Below, piece by piece: positions 1,511-12,061 of a stretch of DNA of 32,738 nucleotides. How positions within the stretch are numbered: position 1 is the stretch's first letter; each line of letters starts with the position of its first letter. The stretch comes from Candidatus Woesearchaeota archaeon (GTDB taxonomy: Archaea; Nanobdellota; Nanobdellia; Pacearchaeales; GW2011-AR1). The notes under the pieces are model-generated. The model did no database searches. It saw nothing but the letters and a program-made list of their open reading frames with translations, and was not told where the DNA came from. Where the stretch lies: the NCBI GenBank assembly GCA_964600565.1, contig CAZRJS010000004.1, positions 1 through 32,738 on the forward strand. The letters are read 5' to 3'. The position numbers and the translations under genes were made by a program.

Positions 1511-2287
1511 ATGAATATAATGAAGACTCCTGTTGAAAATGAAATAGCAAAAGAATTTTTTCTTGATTTTGATAATACAACAAACGTTTCTAATAGATTA
1601 CGTCCAAACGCTGTGTTTAAGAAAAATCACAGATCTGTTTCCCGTTATTTTTCAAAATGGAATAGCTTGGGATATATAAAAGAAGGAACAAAGATAATAG
1701 AAAAAACAAATAAGAAAGGTACTAGTTACACTCAAAGGATTACTGTTTATATATTGAATATGAATTTTTATTTTGATTATGCTAAAGAAAAACTAAGTAA
1801 AAAGGGATTCACTGCTGTAGAAAAAGAGATTATTGAATATATCTTTTCATTTAAAGAAAATAGAGAAGTTGTTTTTAATTTTGATAACATAATTGAAGGA
1901 ATTACTGCTTTTCTTGAGAGAATTTTTTTATTTAGGGGAAGTTTTGAGTTCGAGGAAATATTGGGATTGCAATATATTAAAGGTTTTATAGTCAAACATA
2001 AAATAAGATATATTAAAAGTAAAGATATTGGAAACCAATTTGAAGAATTCTGGAAATATGGTATAAAATATGGGGCTGATTTAAGAAATAAAATAAGAAT
2101 ACTTTCTAATTTTAGCGATAAAAAATATGAAGAGATTTTATTTGGGGGAATAAAGAAATATCATCTGTTACCTTTTGTTATTCCTAACTATTCTACTAAA
2201 GAAGAAAAAGAGGAATTGTTGAGAAGATTTTCAATAATTCTAAATGAAGATAGAGCATTAAAACCTTGGGCAGGGAGATTTATTTAG
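1511..2287 (+). CDS. Hypothetical protein, probable N-terminal winged-helix regulator of the element
   Basis: 258-aa ORF divergent from the rep operon. SVSRYFSKWNSLGYI followed by a beta-wing-like segment resembles wHTH. Confidence 0.5.
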   Translation: MNIMKTPVENEIAKEFFLDFDNTTNVSNRLRPNAVFKKNHRSVSRYFSKWNSLGYIKEGTKIIEKTNKKGTSYTQRITVYILNMNFYFDYAKEKLSKKGFTAVEKEIIEYIFSFKENREVVFNFDNIIEGITAFLERIFLFRGSFEFEEILGLQYIKGFIVKHKIRYIKSKDIGNQFEEFWKYGIKYGADLRNKIRILSNFSDKKYEEILFGGIKKYHLLPFVIPNYSTKEEKEELLRRFSIILNEDRALKPWAGRFI

Positions 2288-3356
2288 AAATTATTTTTTG
2301 TTCACTAATATCTAAGCTTTCATTACCAGATTCTAACATTATCTTAATCATATTTTCCATCTTAGCCATTTTTGTTTGCAATTCTGATAGTTCTGTATTT
2401 GTCATCTGAGTATCTAATTCTTTACTTTCCATTCCTGATCTTGAAATATAAACATCTGGCATATCACTAGAAAAAGCCCAGCCATATCTATAACATAATT
2501 GATGTCTATTAATCTTAGGAGCGTAATAAGTAGCAGAGCTATGTCTAAATAAATGATAATGTATTGCCTTGTCTAATATTTTCCTGCCTAATCTTTGTAA
2601 AAATTTTCTTGTAGTCCCATAACTCTTATCATAAACTTGTTCATCAGACCTAATACCCTGTTTTTCTCTTTCTTTAAGAAATTCACTAACAGCCTCTAGA
2701 CTATATTTCCAATACAAAGAAATAGTTCTCCCTTTAGTTTTACTATATTCCTCTTTAAGTGTTAATTTAACAAAATTATTTTTGCCTTCTGGTAATTGAA
2801 TATCTTCATATCTAATATTATGAAATTCTTCTGCTCTTGCTCCAGAATCAAATAAAACAGCAATTAAAAACCTCTCAGAAGCAGATTTACACCCCTTGTA
2901 TAATTTTATCACCTCTTTTTCTTTAAGATAATCTGGGGTCTTTTTTACTCCTCTTGTATCTAGCCAATCAGTAATTTTTATGCCCTTTTCTTTTAATTTC
3001 CATTTAAGATAAATTTTAATTCCTCTTCTAATATCTACTTTAGTTGAATTTGAATAAGGCTCTCCCCTGATTGTTTTTATTTTATCAGAACTAATAGCTT
3101 TTTCAAAATTTTCTATGTCTTTCATAGTTAGCTTGTTCTCTGACTTGTTCCAAAATTCTAAAGGAATTTTTAATACATCTAAATATTTAGATTGCCTTGA
3201 TTCAGAGATTTTCAATCCTTTATTCACTTTACCTAATTCCAAATCTTCAAGAAATCTCAAAATATTTTTCTTAACAGAATCAGGGATTTTCCATTTGATT
3301 AAATTCTTTTTTCTAGAAGCAATACCTTTCTTATGAATTCTGATTCTTTTATTCAT
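2280..3356 (-). CDS. Tyrosine recombinase/integrase
   Basis: GARAEE (Arg), KTKGR (Lys), HLFRHS (HxxR), YGWAFSSDMPDVY (Trp and catalytic Tyr). Adjacent to a tRNA 3' end. Confidence 0.92.
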   Translation of the reverse strand: MNKRIRIHKKGIASRKKNLIKWKIPDSVKKNILRFLEDLELGKVNKGLKISESRQSKYLDVLKIPLEFWNKSENKLTMKDIENFEKAISSDKIKTIRGEPYSNSTKVDIRRGIKIYLKWKLKEKGIKITDWLDTRGVKKTPDYLKEKEVIKLYKGCKSASERFLIAVLFDSGARAEEFHNIRYEDIQLPEGKNNFVKLTLKEEYSKTKGRTISLYWKYSLEAVSEFLKEREKQGIRSDEQVYDKSYGTTRKFLQRLGRKILDKAIHYHLFRHSSATYYAPKINRHQLCYRYGWAFSSDMPDVYISRSGMESKELDTQMTNTELSELQTKMAKMENMIKIMLESGNESLDISEQKIISK

Positions 3357-3494: not shown

Positions 3495-3625
3495 TTATTT
3501 ATGTAAAATAATTAAAGATTATCTAAAAAATTCAATAGCCTTAAAAGAGTTTCTATATTTTGGGTATATTCTTGAGCATAAAAATATCACCACAATCTTT
3601 TTATATTAATTTTTTCTCCCAAAAA

Positions 3626-4306
3626 ATGGGCGAATTACTATTAGGGATTGATGATGCAGGGCGTGGTCCTGTTATAGGTCCAATGGTTCTTGCAGGATGT
3701 CTTATTGATTCTTCTAAAGAAGGGGAATTAAGGGAATTAGGAGTAAAAGACTCTAAACAACTTACACAAAAAAGAAGAACATTTTTAGTAGAAAAAATAA
3801 AAGAGAGAGCAGAAACATTTGAAATAGTAAGAGTTTTACCTCCTGAAATTGATGGAATGGGTCAAGAGGGTAATCAAAGAATAAAATTAAATGAAATTGA
3901 AGCAAGAGCATGTGCAAAAATAATAAATCGTATAAACAAGGGTTATAAAGAAATAAAAATAGTAATTGATTGCCCTTCAACTAATATAACCAAGTGGAAA
4001 GATTATCTTCTTACAAGAATAGAAAATCTTTCAACCTTAAAGATTTCTTGCGAGCATAAAGCAGATCAAAATCATATTGTTGTTTCAGCAGCTTCAATAA
4101 TAGCAAAAGATATAAGGGAAAAAGAAATGGATAAAATTAGGGAAAAGTATCCTGAAGGAGTTGGTTCAGGTTATTGTTCAGATCCCTTAACAATAAAATT
4201 TCTTGAAAAACACGGGAAAAAATATAAAGATGATGGAATTTTTAGAAAGACATGGATAACTTGGAAGAGAAATTCATTAAACTTCGAACAAAAGAAATTG
4301 ATTTAG
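3626..4306 (+). CDS. rnhB: Ribonuclease HII
   Basis: GIDDAGRGPVIGPMV, VKDSK, HKAD, VSAASIIAK and GSGYCSDP motifs. ATG 3626 preferred over TTG 3560. Confidence 0.96.
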   Translation: MGELLLGIDDAGRGPVIGPMVLAGCLIDSSKEGELRELGVKDSKQLTQKRRTFLVEKIKERAETFEIVRVLPPEIDGMGQEGNQRIKLNEIEARACAKIINRINKGYKEIKIVIDCPSTNITKWKDYLLTRIENLSTLKISCEHKADQNHIVVSAASIIAKDIREKEMDKIREKYPEGVGSGYCSDPLTIKFLEKHGKKYKDDGIFRKTWITWKRNSLNFEQKKLI

Positions 4307-5540: not shown

Positions 5541-5762
5541 ATGGCACTAGGATTTAGCGGGAGTGGTGGAGGAATAGGAGAATTATATAAAGATTTTGTA
5601 AAAGCAGATGTAGAATCAGCTATATTAAAATATGAGAGTTTGATAAAAAAAATTCCTGAAGGAATGTTAGATATTAAAGCATATTATCAAGAAATTTTGC
5701 AAAATTTTGAAACATTAAAAGATAAGACTTCTTCTCCCAACAATTTAGAGTCTAAGATATAA
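5541..5762 (+). CDS. 73-aa protein, copy 1; candidate radical-SAM substrate or precursor peptide
   Basis: GGAG Shine-Dalgarno-like site upstream. Gly/Ser-rich N-terminus ALGFSGSGGGIG followed by a helical region. Upstream of the radical SAM gene. Confidence 0.8.
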   Translation: MALGFSGSGGGIGELYKDFVKADVESAILKYESLIKKIPEGMLDIKAYYQEILQNFETLKDKTSSPNNLESKI

Positions 5763-5780: not shown

Positions 5781-6002
5781 ATGGCACTAGGATTTAGCGG
5801 GAGTGGTGGAGGAATAGGAGAATTATATAAAGATTTTGTAAAAGCAGATGTAGAATCAGCTATATTAAAATATGAGAGTTTGATAAAAAAAATTCCTGAA
5901 GGAATGTTAGATATTAAAGCATATTATCAAGAAATTTTGCAAAATTTTGAAACATTAAAAGATAAGACTTCTTCTCCCCATAATTTAGAATCTAAGATAT
6001 AA
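5781..6002 (+). CDS. 73-aa protein, copy 2 (N67H relative to copy 1)
   Basis: GGAGG site upstream; ends 17 nt before the radical SAM start. Confidence 0.8.
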   Translation: MALGFSGSGGGIGELYKDFVKADVESAILKYESLIKKIPEGMLDIKAYYQEILQNFETLKDKTSSPHNLESKI

Positions 6003-6019: not shown

Positions 6020-7156
6020 ATGGCAATAAGAGAAAACAGTAACATCCTGAGAGATAATAATCTAAAAACTCTTGAAGAGAAAATAGAAATTGTACCTCAA
6101 AAGGACAGGACATTAATAGAAGAACTAGAAGATTTAGAAAAAACCTATAAACTTTTTTGTTTAGCAGAAAGTAATAAAGAAGGAAGAAAGAGTTCTATTC
6201 GTTATATTGATTTATTTATTAATAATAGATGTAATTTAAAATGTAAGCATTGTTATGTTAAATATGAAGAAGAAAGTGAAGGTTTAGGTGTAGATGAGAT
6301 AAAAAAAGTTATTTCTGATTTAAAGGATTGTGGGGCAATGGTGTTTGGTATTGTGGGAAAAGAACCTTTATTGGATTGGAATAAAACAAAAGAAATTCTT
6401 TATTTTTTAAAAGAAAAGCGAAAAGAAGAACATAGATTAAGATTTGGGATTGTTACAAATGGAACTTTATTGGATGAATCTAAAGCAGAAGAATTAAAGA
6501 AGATAGATCCGACTTATATAGACTTAAGCGTTGATGGAACAAAAAAAGAGCATGAATATATTAGAGGAAAAGGACAATATGATAAGGTAATTAATGCTAT
6601 TAGAAATTTAAAGAAAAAAGGCTTGGAGAATAAAATCTTTATCAGCTATACATTAAATAAAAAGAATCAAAATGTATTCTTACCTTTAGTAGATGATTTA
6701 CAAAAAGAAGGAATAAAACAATTTTTAGTATCTCCTTATTTGACAACAGTTAAAAATGATCCTTTGGAAGTTTCTCTTAAGGATTATCTTAATTTTGTTG
6801 AGAATATTATGGAAGAATCAAAGAGAAAAAAATTCAATGCAGAGATATTCATAAAAAATGATTACACAAGTAAAAAGTATCAAGTGGAATTAATAGATAA
6901 AGGAGTAATTAATTTAAATAAACTCTTAGTAGATGATAATTATGCTTTATGGAATATTAGAGAAATAAATGGAAATAAACTCTTATTTAATATTCAACCA
7001 TGGGACACACAAAACTGGTATGGAGTAAGAGTAAGCCATGATGGTTATGTGAGCGATTGCTTTAGTATGTTTTATAGGAACTATCCTGATAGAGCAATTG
7101 GGAATGTAAAGAAAAATTCAATTAAAGAAATTCTTAAACTTTATATTAATTCTTAA
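6020..7156 (+). CDS. Radical SAM enzyme of the SPASM/Twitch-related group
   Basis: CNLKCKHC (CxxxCxxC), GKEPLL, VTNGTLL, LSVDG, HEYIRGKG. C-terminal DGYVSDC...IGNV...SIKEIL beta-hairpin remnant. Confidence 0.9.
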   Translation: MAIRENSNILRDNNLKTLEEKIEIVPQKDRTLIEELEDLEKTYKLFCLAESNKEGRKSSIRYIDLFINNRCNLKCKHCYVKYEEESEGLGVDEIKKVISDLKDCGAMVFGIVGKEPLLDWNKTKEILYFLKEKRKEEHRLRFGIVTNGTLLDESKAEELKKIDPTYIDLSVDGTKKEHEYIRGKGQYDKVINAIRNLKKKGLENKIFISYTLNKKNQNVFLPLVDDLQKEGIKQFLVSPYLTTVKNDPLEVSLKDYLNFVENIMEESKRKKFNAEIFIKNDYTSKKYQVELIDKGVINLNKLLVDDNYALWNIREINGNKLLFNIQPWDTQNWYGVRVSHDGYVSDCFSMFYRNYPDRAIGNVKKNSIKEILKLYINS

Positions 7157-7251: not shown

Positions 7252-10107
7252 ATGACTTATATAAAAAAATTGGTGATGAAAGGTTTTAAAAGTTTTGTTA
7301 GGAAAACAGAAATTCCTTTTACTAACGAAATAAATGTTATTTTAGGTCCAAATGGTTCTGGAAAGTCAAATATTTCAGATGCATTATGTTTTGTTTTAGG
7401 AAGACTTAATATAAAATCAATGAGGGCTGCAAAAGCAAGCAATTTAATTTTTTTAGGCACAAAGGATCTTGGACCTGCAAAAGAGGCAATTGTGGAAATA
7501 GTTTTTGATAATTTAGATAGAGCTTTTTCAATAAATGAAAATGAAATTTCTATAAAAAGAATATTAAGAAAAAACGGACAAAGCATATATAAAATAAATA
7601 ATGAGAAAAAAACAAGACAAGAGATTTTAAGTTTATTAGCACAAGCAGGAATTGACCCAAATGGATTTAATATAATTCTTCAAGGAGAGATACAAAATTT
7701 TGCAAGAATGCACACAGAAGAGAGAAGAAAAGTTATAGAAGAAGTTTCAGGAATTTCAATTTATGAATTAAGAAAAGAAAAATCATTAAAAGAACTTGGA
7801 AAAACAGAGGATAGATTAAGAGAGGTAATTTCAGTTTTAAAAGAAAGAACCACTTATTTAAATAATTTGGAAAAGGAGAGACAACAAGCACTAAAATTCA
7901 AAAAATTACAAAAAGATGTTGAAAAGTTTAAAGCAAGTATAATTTATTCAGATTTAATAAAGAAGAGAAAAGAAAATAAGTATATTGAGGGAGAGATAGA
8001 TAAGTATAAAAAAGAAATTGAAAAAATAAAAAAATCTTCTGCAAATATAAATTTATTAATAACTAATCTTAATTCAAAAATAAATTCTATAAACTATAAA
8101 ATACAGCGTTCAACTGGTTTTGAACAAGAAAAATTGAATCAGGAAATAGCTGATTTACGTGCAGAAATGGCAGGGATAAATGTTAAAATTGAAAATTTTG
8201 AGAAAAATTTTTCTGAATTATCTAGAAAAAAGAAAAATTTGAGTTTAATTGTAAAAGAATCTGAGGATTCTTTGAAAGAATTAAGAAAAGAATCTCCTTT
8301 AACAAAAAAAACTAAAGAGATAAATGATAAAAAAAATGAAATTGAGAAGTTAGAAGAGGAAAGAAAAAAATTTTACACTTTAAAGACTCAATTAAAATCA
8401 TTAAAAGAAAGAAGTTTAGATAAGCAAAATTTACTCAAAAATTATCAAAATGAATCAGAATTTTTGATGAAGAACATTAAAATTCTTTCACAAGATTTAT
8501 TTGATAAAAATTCTGATGGAGAGAAATTAGGGGCATTAAAATTCTCTCTTAAAGGAAGAAAGGAAATTTTAGAGAAAATTTCAAAAGAAGAAAAAAATCT
8601 TGAAAAAAATGCTTATGCAAATGAAAGCGAGATAGAGAAAAATGAGAATTTAATAAGAAGAATTCCTTCAACAGATATATGTCCTTTATGTAAAAGTAAG
8701 ATAACAAAAGATCATATTGATTCTATAAAAAATGATGTTAATTATAAGAATTCTATCCTGAAAAAAGAAATTGAAAAATATGATAAAAAACTCATGGAAA
8801 TAGAACAAAAAAGAAAGACTCTTAATTCAGAAATAGACTCATTGGAGTTAGAAATTTCAAGAAGAGAATCTGACTTAATTAAAATTTTAAATATTAATGA
8901 TAAAAAAGAGCAGATAAAAATATTATATGAAAAAATAGAATTATTAAAAAAGGAAATTTCAACTATAGAAAATAATAAGAGGCATTTAGAGAATAAATTT
9001 GATGAAACTTCTAATATAGAGCAGAGATATGAATCTGCAAGAATTGATATTCAAGAAATTTCTATGAGAAGTAAAGAAACTGTAAGTTCTGAAATTTCTT
9101 TTAAGATAAGAGAATTGGAAAGGTCGAGAATTCAATTAAAACAGTTTTATAGAGATGAAGAGGAAATTAAAGAAGAACTAGAAGAGATAAAAAAATTTCT
9201 TGTATCTAAAGAAAAAACTCTTAAATCTAAAAGAGAACAAGAAGAAGAACTTGCTAAAAAATTCCAGGAATTAATTAAGAAAAGGGATTTTTATCAGTCT
9301 GAAATAAGAAACTATGAAATAACTCTTTCTGAAGATAGGAATAAAATTTATAATATAGAGCAAAAAATTAATGATTTAAAAATTGAAAAAGCAAAAGTTA
9401 ATGCAGAAATTGAAAATTTTGAAACAGATATGCTGAGTTACGAAAATATTGAGATAGTAAAAATAAATAAAGATTTTTTATTGGATAAATTAAATAAAAC
9501 TCAGGACATTCTTTTAAAAATTGGCTCTGTAAATATGCGTTCTCTTGAAGTTTATGATTCTATAAAAGAAGAGTATGAAAAGATTAATCAGAAGGCAGAG
9601 ATTATAATGAAAGAAAAAGAAAGTGTATTGAAAATTATTCATGAAATTGATATTAAAAAGAAAAAAACTTTTATGAATACACTAAATTCTTTAAATGAGA
9701 TTTTTTCAAAAAATTTTTCCCAATTAAGTTCTAAAGGACAGGTTTTTTTAGAGGTTGAAAATAGAAAAGACCCTTTTTTAGGAGGAATTCGCATAATTGT
9801 TAAAACAGGACATGGCAAATATTTTGATGTTAAATCTCTTTCAGGAGGAGAACAAACAATTGTCGCATTATCTCTTATTTTTGGGATACAAGAACTTAAA
9901 CCATATTCTTTTTATGTACTTGATGAAATTGATGCGCCCTTAGATAAGAGAAATTCTCAAAGACTTGCTGTTCTTTTAAGAAGATATATGAAAAAAGGAC
10001 AATATATAGTTATAAGTCATAATGATGAGGTTATTTCAGAATCAACAACCCTTTATGGAGTGAGCATGCACGAGGGTGTTAGCAAAATAATTAGTTTAAG
10101 ATTATGA
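7252..10107 (+). CDS. smc: SMC-family ATPase (Smc-like heads, central CxxC zinc hook)
   Basis: GFKSF, Walker A GPNGSGKSN, Q-loop ILQGEI, GSVNMRS, signature LSGGE, Walker B/D-loop LDEIDAPLD, ISH switch, long coiled coils. Confidence 0.85.
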   Translation: MTYIKKLVMKGFKSFVRKTEIPFTNEINVILGPNGSGKSNISDALCFVLGRLNIKSMRAAKASNLIFLGTKDLGPAKEAIVEIVFDNLDRAFSINENEISIKRILRKNGQSIYKINNEKKTRQEILSLLAQAGIDPNGFNIILQGEIQNFARMHTEERRKVIEEVSGISIYELRKEKSLKELGKTEDRLREVISVLKERTTYLNNLEKERQQALKFKKLQKDVEKFKASIIYSDLIKKRKENKYIEGEIDKYKKEIEKIKKSSANINLLITNLNSKINSINYKIQRSTGFEQEKLNQEIADLRAEMAGINVKIENFEKNFSELSRKKKNLSLIVKESEDSLKELRKESPLTKKTKEINDKKNEIEKLEEERKKFYTLKTQLKSLKERSLDKQNLLKNYQNESEFLMKNIKILSQDLFDKNSDGEKLGALKFSLKGRKEILEKISKEEKNLEKNAYANESEIEKNENLIRRIPSTDICPLCKSKITKDHIDSIKNDVNYKNSILKKEIEKYDKKLMEIEQKRKTLNSEIDSLELEISRRESDLIKILNINDKKEQIKILYEKIELLKKEISTIENNKRHLENKFDETSNIEQRYESARIDIQEISMRSKETVSSEISFKIRELERSRIQLKQFYRDEEEIKEELEEIKKFLVSKEKTLKSKREQEEELAKKFQELIKKRDFYQSEIRNYEITLSEDRNKIYNIEQKINDLKIEKAKVNAEIENFETDMLSYENIEIVKINKDFLLDKLNKTQDILLKIGSVNMRSLEVYDSIKEEYEKINQKAEIIMKEKESVLKIIHEIDIKKKKTFMNTLNSLNEIFSKNFSQLSSKGQVFLEVENRKDPFLGGIRIIVKTGHGKYFDVKSLSGGEQTIVALSLIFGIQELKPYSFYVLDEIDAPLDKRNSQRLAVLLRRYMKKGQYIVISHNDEVISESTTLYGVSMHEGVSKIISLRL

Positions 10108-10146
10108 ACCAAAATATTTAAATATATAATAACTATATAACATACT

Positions 10147-10365
10147 ATGGTAACTACAATTCAAATAAGTAATGGGTTATTACAAAAACTTAGGATGATG
10201 AAAATCCATACAAAAGAAAGTTATGAAGATCTTATTTGGGATTTAATAGAAGATAGAATGGAATTCTCAGAGGAAACAAAGAAGAGTATTACACAATCAG
10301 AGAAAGATTTTAAAGAGGGTAGATTGATTTCTCTTGAAGAGTTAAAAAAGAAAAGAGGATTATAA
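10147..10365 (+). CDS. Antitoxin (RHH-like) of a type II TA pair
   Basis: MVTTIQIS...ESYEDLIWDL...GRLISLEELKK; stop overlaps the toxin start (TAATG). Confidence 0.8.
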   Translation: MVTTIQISNGLLQKLRMMKIHTKESYEDLIWDLIEDRMEFSEETKKSITQSEKDFKEGRLISLEELKKKRGL

Positions 10366-10616
10366 TGTATTCTATAGAATTTTCAAAAACTGCAGAAAAG
10401 CAGTTAGATAAACTTCCAAATTTAGTGCAGAATAGAATAATATTAACACTAGATAGAATAAAGATTAATCCTTTTCGTGCTGTAAAAAGAAAACAAGGCA
10501 CACCTTATTTTATTTTAAGAATTGGAGAATATAGGGCAATTTTAGATATAAAAAAAGATAAATTGGTTATTCTTATATTAGAAGTTGGTCCACGAGGAAA
10601 AATTTACAAAAATTAG
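10365..10616 (+). CDS. RelE/ParE-family toxin
   Basis: YSIEFSKTAEKQLDKL...LRIGEYRAIL...VGPRGKIY. Confidence 0.88.
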   Translation: MYSIEFSKTAEKQLDKLPNLVQNRIILTLDRIKINPFRAVKRKQGTPYFILRIGEYRAILDIKKDKLVILILEVGPRGKIYKN

Positions 10617-10795: not shown

Positions 10796-12061
10796 TTAGT
10801 AATAACTTTCTCCGAATTCTTCTTTTTCGTTTTCTTTAGGTTTTTTTCCTAATAAAACAATCACGATTATTAGCAATACTAATAACACAATTGCAAGACT
10901 TACAGTTAAGATAATCATTGGATTATCCATTTTTGATTCTTTTGTTGCATCTGCTTTCAGAGTTGTAGAACTTACAATTTCTGAACCAGAGAACAAATTA
11001 ACACTAAACTGATATTTCCCGCTTGTTTTAGCATTTGCAATTAAACTAATTGTTTTACTTGAGCCAGCAGGAATAGCTATAACAGAGCTTTCCGCACTCA
11101 CTCTTAAGTCTTGAGGAGATTCAATTACAATGTTATAAACTTTTAACTTATTAGTTGGATTAGCAATTAATAAGTTATATTCTGCATCTTTTCCTACAGA
11201 AAAAGTTTTTCCTATTGTAGTTGCAATAAGGTTGCCTGAAGCAAAATCATTTTTTACAATAATCTGCTTTTCCTTGTTTGTAACAATATCTTCATTTTGA
11301 ATTTCTACTTCAAGGGCATAAATTCCAGGTTGTGCATCATATGGAATTTCTAAATAAAATTTGCCCTGAACTGTATCTTCTTCATCATTGTTACAGTAGC
11401 AATTTCCATTATCACAGTCTTCATATTCAACTGCAATTATGTCGCCAAGGTAAGATGTTCTTTCAATTCCTAATGCAGGAATTCTCACTGTCACATATGT
11501 GTCATCAAGTTCGTTATAACCAACATTTTTCAAAGTAGTTTTAACAAGAAAGTTCTCACCAGCTTCTACACTGCTTTTTGAATCAATAGACATTACAAGT
11601 GCTTTATATGGTTCTCTTTGGACATTAAGTGATATTTCTGAATGTTCAGTTTTATAGTCACTGTTCCAAATTTCTATTTCAAGAAAAACACTGTCACTTA
11701 CTTCATCCTTAAGTTCATAAGGAATTTTCACATTAAGTGTTTTCACATACCTTTTTCCTTCTTCTAAGTCAAAAGGGCCTTTTTTAGCACTAACATCTAT
11801 CTTTTCTCCTTCAATCTCTGCTTTTATTCTAACATTAGACGCGTCTTCAAGAGCTGTAAAATAAACTGTTATAATTGCGGTTTCACCACCAATAATGCTG
11901 ATGTCTTCATCACCATAATCATATAACTCGTTAATTTTTACAGAATCAACTGATACTAACTCGTCTTCTGCAATTGCTAAATTAGCAACTGATAAAATGC
12001 TAGCGATTACAAGAAAAAAAACCAAGAGGTTTTTTGTTTTCATTTGAGCTTTTTTTTGCAT
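10796..12061 (-). CDS. Membrane-anchored surface/S-layer-like protein with Ig-like domains
   Basis: N-terminal signal peptide, beta-rich acidic body (LKNVG, PYDAQPGIY), C-terminal TM helix and charged tail. True start may be 12043. Confidence 0.7.
   Translation of the reverse strand: MQKKAQMKTKNLLVFFLVIASILSVANLAIAEDELVSVDSVKINELYDYGDEDISIIGGETAIITVYFTALEDASNVRIKAEIEGEKIDVSAKKGPFDLEEGKRYVKTLNVKIPYELKDEVSDSVFLEIEIWNSDYKTEHSEISLNVQREPYKALVMSIDSKSSVEAGENFLVKTTLKNVGYNELDDTYVTVRIPALGIERTSYLGDIIAVEYEDCDNGNCYCNNDEEDTVQGKFYLEIPYDAQPGIYALEVEIQNEDIVTNKEKQIIVKNDFASGNLIATTIGKTFSVGKDAEYNLLIANPTNKLKVYNIVIESPQDLRVSAESSVIAIPAGSSKTISLIANAKTSGKYQFSVNLFSGSEIVSSTTLKADATKESKMDNPMIILTVSLAIVLLVLLIIVIVLLGKKPKENEKEEFGESYY

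Follow-up and report, generated by a model that had tools for sequence, protein, structure and literature searches.

A hingeless Smc with a Rad50-like zinc hook in one archaeal order

The smc locus and its gene product

The window, by which we mean the whole analysed stretch of 32,738 nucleotides from a Candidatus Woesearchaeota genome, contains a single open frame, delineated by ORF translation, for a 951-aa Smc protein (Table 1). Motifs, NCBIfam models and a PDB sequence search identify in it a split ATPase head of the Smc type with all ATPase motifs intact. The sequence-only reading had pointed to the head motifs GFKSF, GPNGSGKSNISDALCFVLG, GSVNMRS and LDEIDAPLD in a 951-aa protein and to a CPLC motif at the midpoint of its coiled coil, and all of these are in place: GFKSF begins at residue 11, GSVNMRS at 758 and LDEIDAPLD at 890, with the signature LSGGE at 863, and CPLC occupies residues 477-480, the midpoint of the protein. 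Outside CPLC the only cysteine is C46, and residues 436-757 are glycine-free. Two public sequencing runs, one of them possibly the source sample, each yield one contig that runs unbroken through the hook and its two junctions (7739-10300 and 7765-10300, with 1 and 0 letters differing from the window, respectively), indicating that the frame is not an assembly chimera.

Table 1. Features of the smc gene, in window coordinates with residue numbers in brackets
Feature	Position	Strand	Basis
smc gene, hingeless, with central CPLC hook	7252..10107	+	951-aa frame, motifs, NCBIfam scores
Smc-derived N-terminal head and head-proximal arm (1-345)	7252..8286	+	profile diagonal 0 against hinge-bearing Smc
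Walker A, GPNGSGKS (32-39; GPNGSGKSNISDALCFVLG starts at residue 32)	7345..7368	+	motif
N-side junction, non-helical break (346-354)	8287..8313	+	Smc diagonal ends; model pLDDT <50
Rad50-like central hairpin (~350-605), hook with ~125 coiled-coil residues per side	8299..9066	+	profile match, weak in the flanks
Zinc-hook loop (474-488) with C477, C480 and invariant H488; CPLC at 8680-8691	8671..8715	+	motif, alignment, profile, models
C-side junction, non-helical break (606-611)	9067..9084	+	pLDDT <50 at 607-609; Smc diagonal +211 resumes afterwards
Smc-derived C-terminal arm and head (612-951)	9085..10104	+	diagonal +211/212, arm segments z 6.9 and 6.7
Smc-type motif region GSVNMRSLEVY, presumably the 'joint' (755-772)	9514..9567	+	motif; PDB sequence matches
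ABC signature LSGGE (863-867)	9838..9852	+	motif
Walker B and D-loop (887-898)	9910..9945	+	motif
H-loop (917-927, H923)	10000..10032	+	motif; alignment

Several other genes of the window deserve mention in their own right; the radical SAM gene before smc and the toxin-antitoxin pair after it are not counted as components of the Smc locus. At 250-1311 lies a gene for a Rep-like protein that carries an IS91-type zinc domain, and at 2280-3356 one for a tyrosine integrase; both probably belong to an integrated element. Tandem 73-aa ORFs with a Gly/Ser-rich start (5541-5762 and 5781-6002, +), identical at 219 of 222 nucleotides, directly precede a radical SAM/SPASM gene (6020-7156, +) and possibly represent peptide substrates with their maturase, or else a recent duplication. 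Just after smc, a ParE/RelE-type toxin gene and a small ORF upstream of it (10147-10616, +) form a likely type II toxin-antitoxin pair. RNase HII (3560-4306) and a membrane-anchored protein ending in SYY (10796-12061) are common smc neighbours in relatives (28/54 and 16/54 loci with short flanks, respectively), and in this window small inserts part both genes from smc.

Pfam detects SMC_N and no SMC hinge in the 951-aa ORF, and SMC_hinge (PF06470) finds no match anywhere in the genome (1.4 Mb, 87% complete), so that the earlier impression of a missing hinge is borne out by the HMM scan. The same kind of check gave a more divided answer for the hook: Rad50_zn_hook (PF04423) taken alone matches weakly (E 0.34), and it is the profile comparisons and structural models described below that support a hook-type CxxC at the coiled coil's apex. 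An alignment of 22 rows shows no variation at C477, P478, C480 or H488. The fetched loci yielded 56 Smc ORFs of 930-1000 aa that are distinct and complete, the unparsed L038 and L039 lying outside this count; a CPxC motif is placed at 0.49-0.51 of the length in 54 of them, and the remaining two, which come from another family, retain a hinge. Such invariance and placement are not expected by chance.

Descent of the heads and extent of the Rad50-like segment

Among the NCBIfam models the protein scores highest with SMC_prok_A (TIGR02169, 492.7 bits in two stretches) and SMC_prok_B (TIGR02168, 472.1), far above the best Rad50 model (97.2), ASRP (NF045487, 88.2) and arcadin-4 (NF053563, 29.1). 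None of these scores reaches the cut-off of its model (729.4 bits for TIGR02169, 567.35 for TIGR02168, 300 for NF045487 and 860 for NF053563), the shortfall with TIGR02169 (493 vs 729 bits) being due to the missing hinge. The top matches in the PDB sequence search are Pyrococcus Smc heads (E 3e-149), with Rad50 at 4e-16. In a tree of the heads (297 columns) the 17 Rad50 rows, including the genome's own, form one clade (100/97), and the hook proteins sit with Smc; the single ASRP-like row included lies outside the Smc group. A second tree of heads and proximal arms (678 columns, 46 rows picked from 84) unites 20 hook rows and 4 rows with neither hinge nor hook in one 100/100 clade, which in turn lies within hinge-bearing Smc of the phylum (group support 98/97). 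Every hook row placed in the trees falls in this single clade. The original assignment to Smc is borne out, the heads grouping outside the Rad50 clade in the tree and standing well apart from ASRP and arcadin-4 by model score, and on the sequence evidence the heads descend from within prokaryotic Smc.

The extent of the non-Smc segment was delineated by setting a profile built from 54 hook proteins against same-phylum profiles of hinge-bearing Smc (37 proteins) and of Rad50 (three sets). The protein keeps to Smc diagonal 0 from residue 1 to about 345 (z 10.1 for 175-260 and z 6.5 for 260-345), the central region follows no Smc diagonal, and from about residue 612-620 on an Smc diagonal is found at +211/212 (Table 1). 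Within the central region, residues 466-492 match the Rad50 hook with z 8.7-11.8. With the short Rad50s (n=14), out of about 620 diagonals the one on which the hook lies comes out best in the segments 420-465, 493-550 and 550-610, and the segment 350-415 is best on a diagonal 6 away, with z no higher than 2.9-3.5 in each case; with the long Rad50s the flanks disagree with the hook diagonal. The Rad50 match of the flanks (z 2.9-4.3) lies in low-complexity coiled coil. Aligned to Rad50 without gaps, 130 residues show 17-19% identity, which drops to 10-11.5% when the alignment is shifted by 7 or 14, and a profile-profile alignment with Rad50 gives 99.4% over 276 columns, a value inflated by the coiled coil. 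By these comparisons the central segment corresponds to the Rad50 hook and, probably, to its flanking arms, and we infer that about 477 residues of an 1164-aa Smc, comprising the hinge and outer arms, have been replaced by about 265 Rad50-like residues. The sequence-only reading of a Smc/Rad50 chimera stands as to the Smc heads and the Rad50-like hook, with the refinement that the exchange would have taken in the outer arms and not the hinge alone. Such a protein could have originated by an in-frame recombination that set about 265 residues of a same-phylum rad50 between Smc positions ~345 and ~823, where it either displaced the hinge itself or joined a helical tip from which the hinge was already gone. 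Trees built from the hook segment identified no Rad50 donor.

The AlphaFold model of the 951-aa protein (pTM 0.42) shows an extended, antiparallel coiled coil whose small loop falls at 474-485. Its pLDDT drops below 50 only at 346-354 and 607-609, which coincide with the two inferred junctions. When the tip is modelled alone the pLDDT is 95. A Foldseek search with this tip places Rad50 hooks at ranks 1-4 (1L8D with TM 0.79 and E 0.016) and returns no match under E 0.001, and in VIA-align it retrieves generic helical hairpins (best Z 10.7), with P. furiosus Rad50 (6ZFF) at Z 9.6, a listing of little diagnostic value. A complex prediction for Zn and a pair of chains spanning residues 420-545 scored 0.09 and 0.05, against a mark of 0.42, and is given no weight for or against a dimer.

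Partner genes and distribution across the order

A search of the source genome recovered both ScpA and ScpB, and also rad50 and mre11 as genes distinct from smc, the Rad50 being found by the Rad50 family model after eluding tblastn and phmmer with the Smc query. Across the family, ScpA is present in 61/61 genomes and ScpB in 58/61, a separate Rad50 of ~680 aa in 60/61 (one of them a weak match), and Mre11 in 41/41, where its gene often directly adjoins rad50. In the source genome itself about 3.3 kb of other genes lie between rad50 and mre11 (G000:C5:7721-14318, L169), which are adjacent in many relatives. No mre11 occurs among the 28 window ORFs scanned, in agreement with the initial observation that it is absent nearby, and a motif scan of short flanks found neither mre11 nor scpA beside smc in any of 54 loci. 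As scpA and scpB do not adjoin smc, the partnership of their products with this Smc rests on co-occurrence.

The hook-tipped form is not special to the genome in which it was first noticed and proves to be common across the order. An Smc match is found in 199/201 genomes of the family, and among the 150 matches listed the intact family frames measure ~950-1040 aa, or ~1490 aa with an intein; frames in other families of the phylum are mostly near 1150-1200 aa. One such intein-like insert, of ~540 aa, interrupts Walker A of a hook-bearing Smc (L098:767-5251), and several family frames are of ~1490 aa. A hinge was detected in 0/121 genomes of the host family, compared with 10/14 in the control. 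When the 150 top-ranked representatives from a profile search are sorted with our own models and a CxxC check, they comprise 32 hook forms, 97 hinge forms, 16 full-length proteins with neither (4 of which score partially for a hinge) and 5 fragments. A further 33 loci come from eight other families of the order, 32 of them parsed (L227 being left out): all 20 long forms carry CxxC, and the other 12 encode Smc proteins of 781-809 aa without hinge or hook (families f70, f72 and part of f69), so that the hook cannot be a requirement throughout the lineage. Short Smc proteins of this kind (779-809 aa; L219-L226, L228-L231, P0021, P0022, P0026, P0029) have an amphipathic helical hairpin as their tip. 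A 944-aa Smc of family f23 was considered as a second hook case and rejected, as it retains the hinge; the 944-aa hinge-bearing Smc proteins at L079:846-3680 and L080:710-3544, with arms of ~234 residues, are natural mini-Smc forms.

In the order's Smc tree f70 branches first (100/100 vs 100/98), and the remaining groups without hinge or hook branch from within the hook rows. The tips of f69 and f72 are homologous by hhalign (96-97%, values to which shared flanks contribute in thin alignments) yet these groups are not sisters, and the f70 tip bears a weak likeness to both (10-32%). The hooks of f67/f69 show 19.3% identity to the other Smc hooks and 19.8% to Rad50, and a test of one common origin for all Smc hooks neither establishes nor rejects it (p-AU 0.425). 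As relatives in three families possess neither hinge nor hook, the hook may have been grafted onto a hingeless tip, possibly more than once. Either a single graft with later losses or a prior loss of the hinge with at least one subsequent graft may account for this picture. We tentatively entertain, as a possibility somewhat short of an even chance, that the ancestor of the order lost the hinge to leave a bare helical tip, onto which Rad50 hooks were then grafted, possibly repeatedly, giving a natural series of loop-extruding hinge, hook and hairpin condensins. Further full-length archaeal Smc proteins without hinge or hook include forms of 1296-1497 aa (P0110, labelled Promethearchaeota, P0111, P0139, P0141 and P0147), two of 754-770 aa (P0126 and P0127) and one of 838 aa (P0100). 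As these long, 754-770-aa and 838-aa forms lie on separate branches, the hinge seems to have been lost several times.

Proposed mechanism, alternatives and significance

We consider it quite probable that the protein is the cell's condensin Smc, with hinge and outer arms replaced by a Rad50-like hook hairpin, and that it acts as a homodimer with the tips held by one zinc ion. The lack of a hinge together with a tip that matches the Rad50 hook makes zinc the likely means by which two copies join: by analogy with Rad50 and an engineered Smc, C477 and C480 of two protomers would bind one Zn2+. ScpA would bridge the heads and close the ring and ScpB would bind ScpA, as suggested by orthology to Smc-ScpAB and by co-occurrence, and ATP-driven head engagement would, as in Smc-ScpAB, capture and loop DNA for chromosome organisation and segregation. 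That a hook-joined Smc is feasible is indicated by Buermann et al. 2017 (PMC5344682), in which B. subtilis with Smc(Zh), a Rad50 hook substituted for the hinge, grew normally, and by the reverse swap reported for fission yeast Rad50 (PMC6969161).

Arm length complicates a simple transfer from B. subtilis. The arm of the hook Smc measures 316 residues (53/54 proteins, range 314.5-317.5) and that of hinge-bearing relatives 342 (25/37 parsed), with rough boundaries modelled on PMC5344682. The same paper describes B. subtilis Smc as functional with arms of at least 321 and of 253-267 residues and as mostly failing at 268-320. An arm of ~316 residues falls just inside the failing range, which mildly argues against such a transfer; the junction breaks may free the arm geometry.

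Among alternative readings, if the arms paired by coiled coil and kleisin, the condensin could work with a CPxC loop that caps or stabilises the tip without being the essential joint. The relatives of 781-809 aa that manage with neither hinge nor hook, f70 among them as the first branch of the order, lend this some appeal, but we judge it improbable given that CPxC is kept in 54/54 hook proteins, where the surrounding 100 columns average 46% identity, and in 20/20 long forms of other families. Moreover, a lone CxxC provides half of a tetrahedral site, as is established for Rad50. The occurrence of similar hooks on two proteins of one cell might also suggest that Smc pairs with the resident Rad50, or has shifted to a repair role alongside Mre11; this we regard as very unlikely, since both of those proteins are intact, with their genes side by side in many genomes, the heads are of the Smc type, ScpA and ScpB are retained, and the arm lengths are very different (688 vs 951 aa).

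We likewise give little credence to an independent origin of CxxC in a shortened Smc arm, with a mere resemblance to the Rad50 hook. The motif is short, and BRCA1 RING fragments score level with 1L8D in the PDB sequence search, but of 100 profile positions BRCA1 covers 13, as against 87-96 for the three Rad50 hook entries, the match runs past the cysteines on one ungapped diagonal, and the profile-profile value, even if inflated by the coiled coil, extends over 276 columns. That the protein is a member of the ASRP/ClsN/Sph assemblage, or that the contig is a misassembly of Smc and Rad50, is scarcely credible: PMC9389158 does attribute a zinc hook to ASRPs, but the score of 88 bits compares with a cut-off of 300 and the lone ASRP-like row falls outside the Smc group, and the form occurs across the family and is spanned by single contigs.

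The favoured reading, a condensin Smc with a zinc-hook tip, can be set against the known systems. With prokaryotic Smc (TIGR02169/TIGR02168; Pyrococcus heads 5XEI, 5XNS and 4I99) the protein shares orthologous heads, proximal arms and ATPase motifs, and as in Smc-ScpAB systems a single smc copy was found per genome together with ScpA and ScpB. Unlike the Smc of those systems it has no SMC_hinge, measures 951 vs ~1165 aa and scores below the model cut-offs; though Smc-descended, it is hence filed, for want of the hinge, as a variant and not as a canonical member. It resembles same-phylum Rad50/SbcC and the P. furiosus hook 1L8D in its CPxC hook, the sequence context of the latter and the predicted hairpin fold, but differs in its heads, in the lack of an adjoining mre11 and in coexisting with a separate Rad50-Mre11. 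ASRPs (ClsN/coalescin, Sph; NF045487) and arcadin-4 (NF053563) are likewise archaeal and SMC-like, and according to PMC9389158 and PMC9764264 a zinc hook is present in ASRPs and ClsN acts as a chromosome organiser, but the present heads are Smc orthologues that score 88 and 29 bits on those two models. The hook-tipped Smc is neither Rad50 nor an ASRP. Closest to it is the engineered Smc(Zh), in which Smc heads and arms likewise bear the zinc hook of Rad50 where the hinge would be; the archaeal form is natural and lineage-wide, its graft adds ~125 arm residues per strand, and its arm is ~26 residues shorter than in hinge-bearing relatives.

In the literature searched, a scope that mostly excluded subscription papers, no description of a natural hook-tipped Smc was found. 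None appears in the portions consulted of PMC6969161, PMC9389158, PMC8665677, PMC7752040, PMC9764264, PMC11840125, PMC7055376 and bioRxiv 2024.01.07.573240, or in those of PMC5344682. The natural form is real and lineage-wide and, apparently, unpublished.

This Smc represents a natural version of the hinge-to-hook swap built in the laboratory, the knowledge that a hook can stand in for the hinge having come from one B. subtilis construct. The hinge counts among the defining features of the SMC family, and it has been credited with functions in DNA binding, gating and loop extrusion. A lineage in which a hook-bearing Smc coexists with ScpA and ScpB, beside hinge-bearing and bare-hairpin relatives, supplies evolved reagents for testing the need for the hinge, as well as a test of the 91-residue arm-length rule and of how a cell stops the cross-pairing of two hook-bearing proteins. 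It also implies that hinge-based searches miss real condensins. If the hinge has indeed been swapped repeatedly in nature, it would be dispensable for SMC function there, and the order would offer a series varying in both tips and arm lengths.
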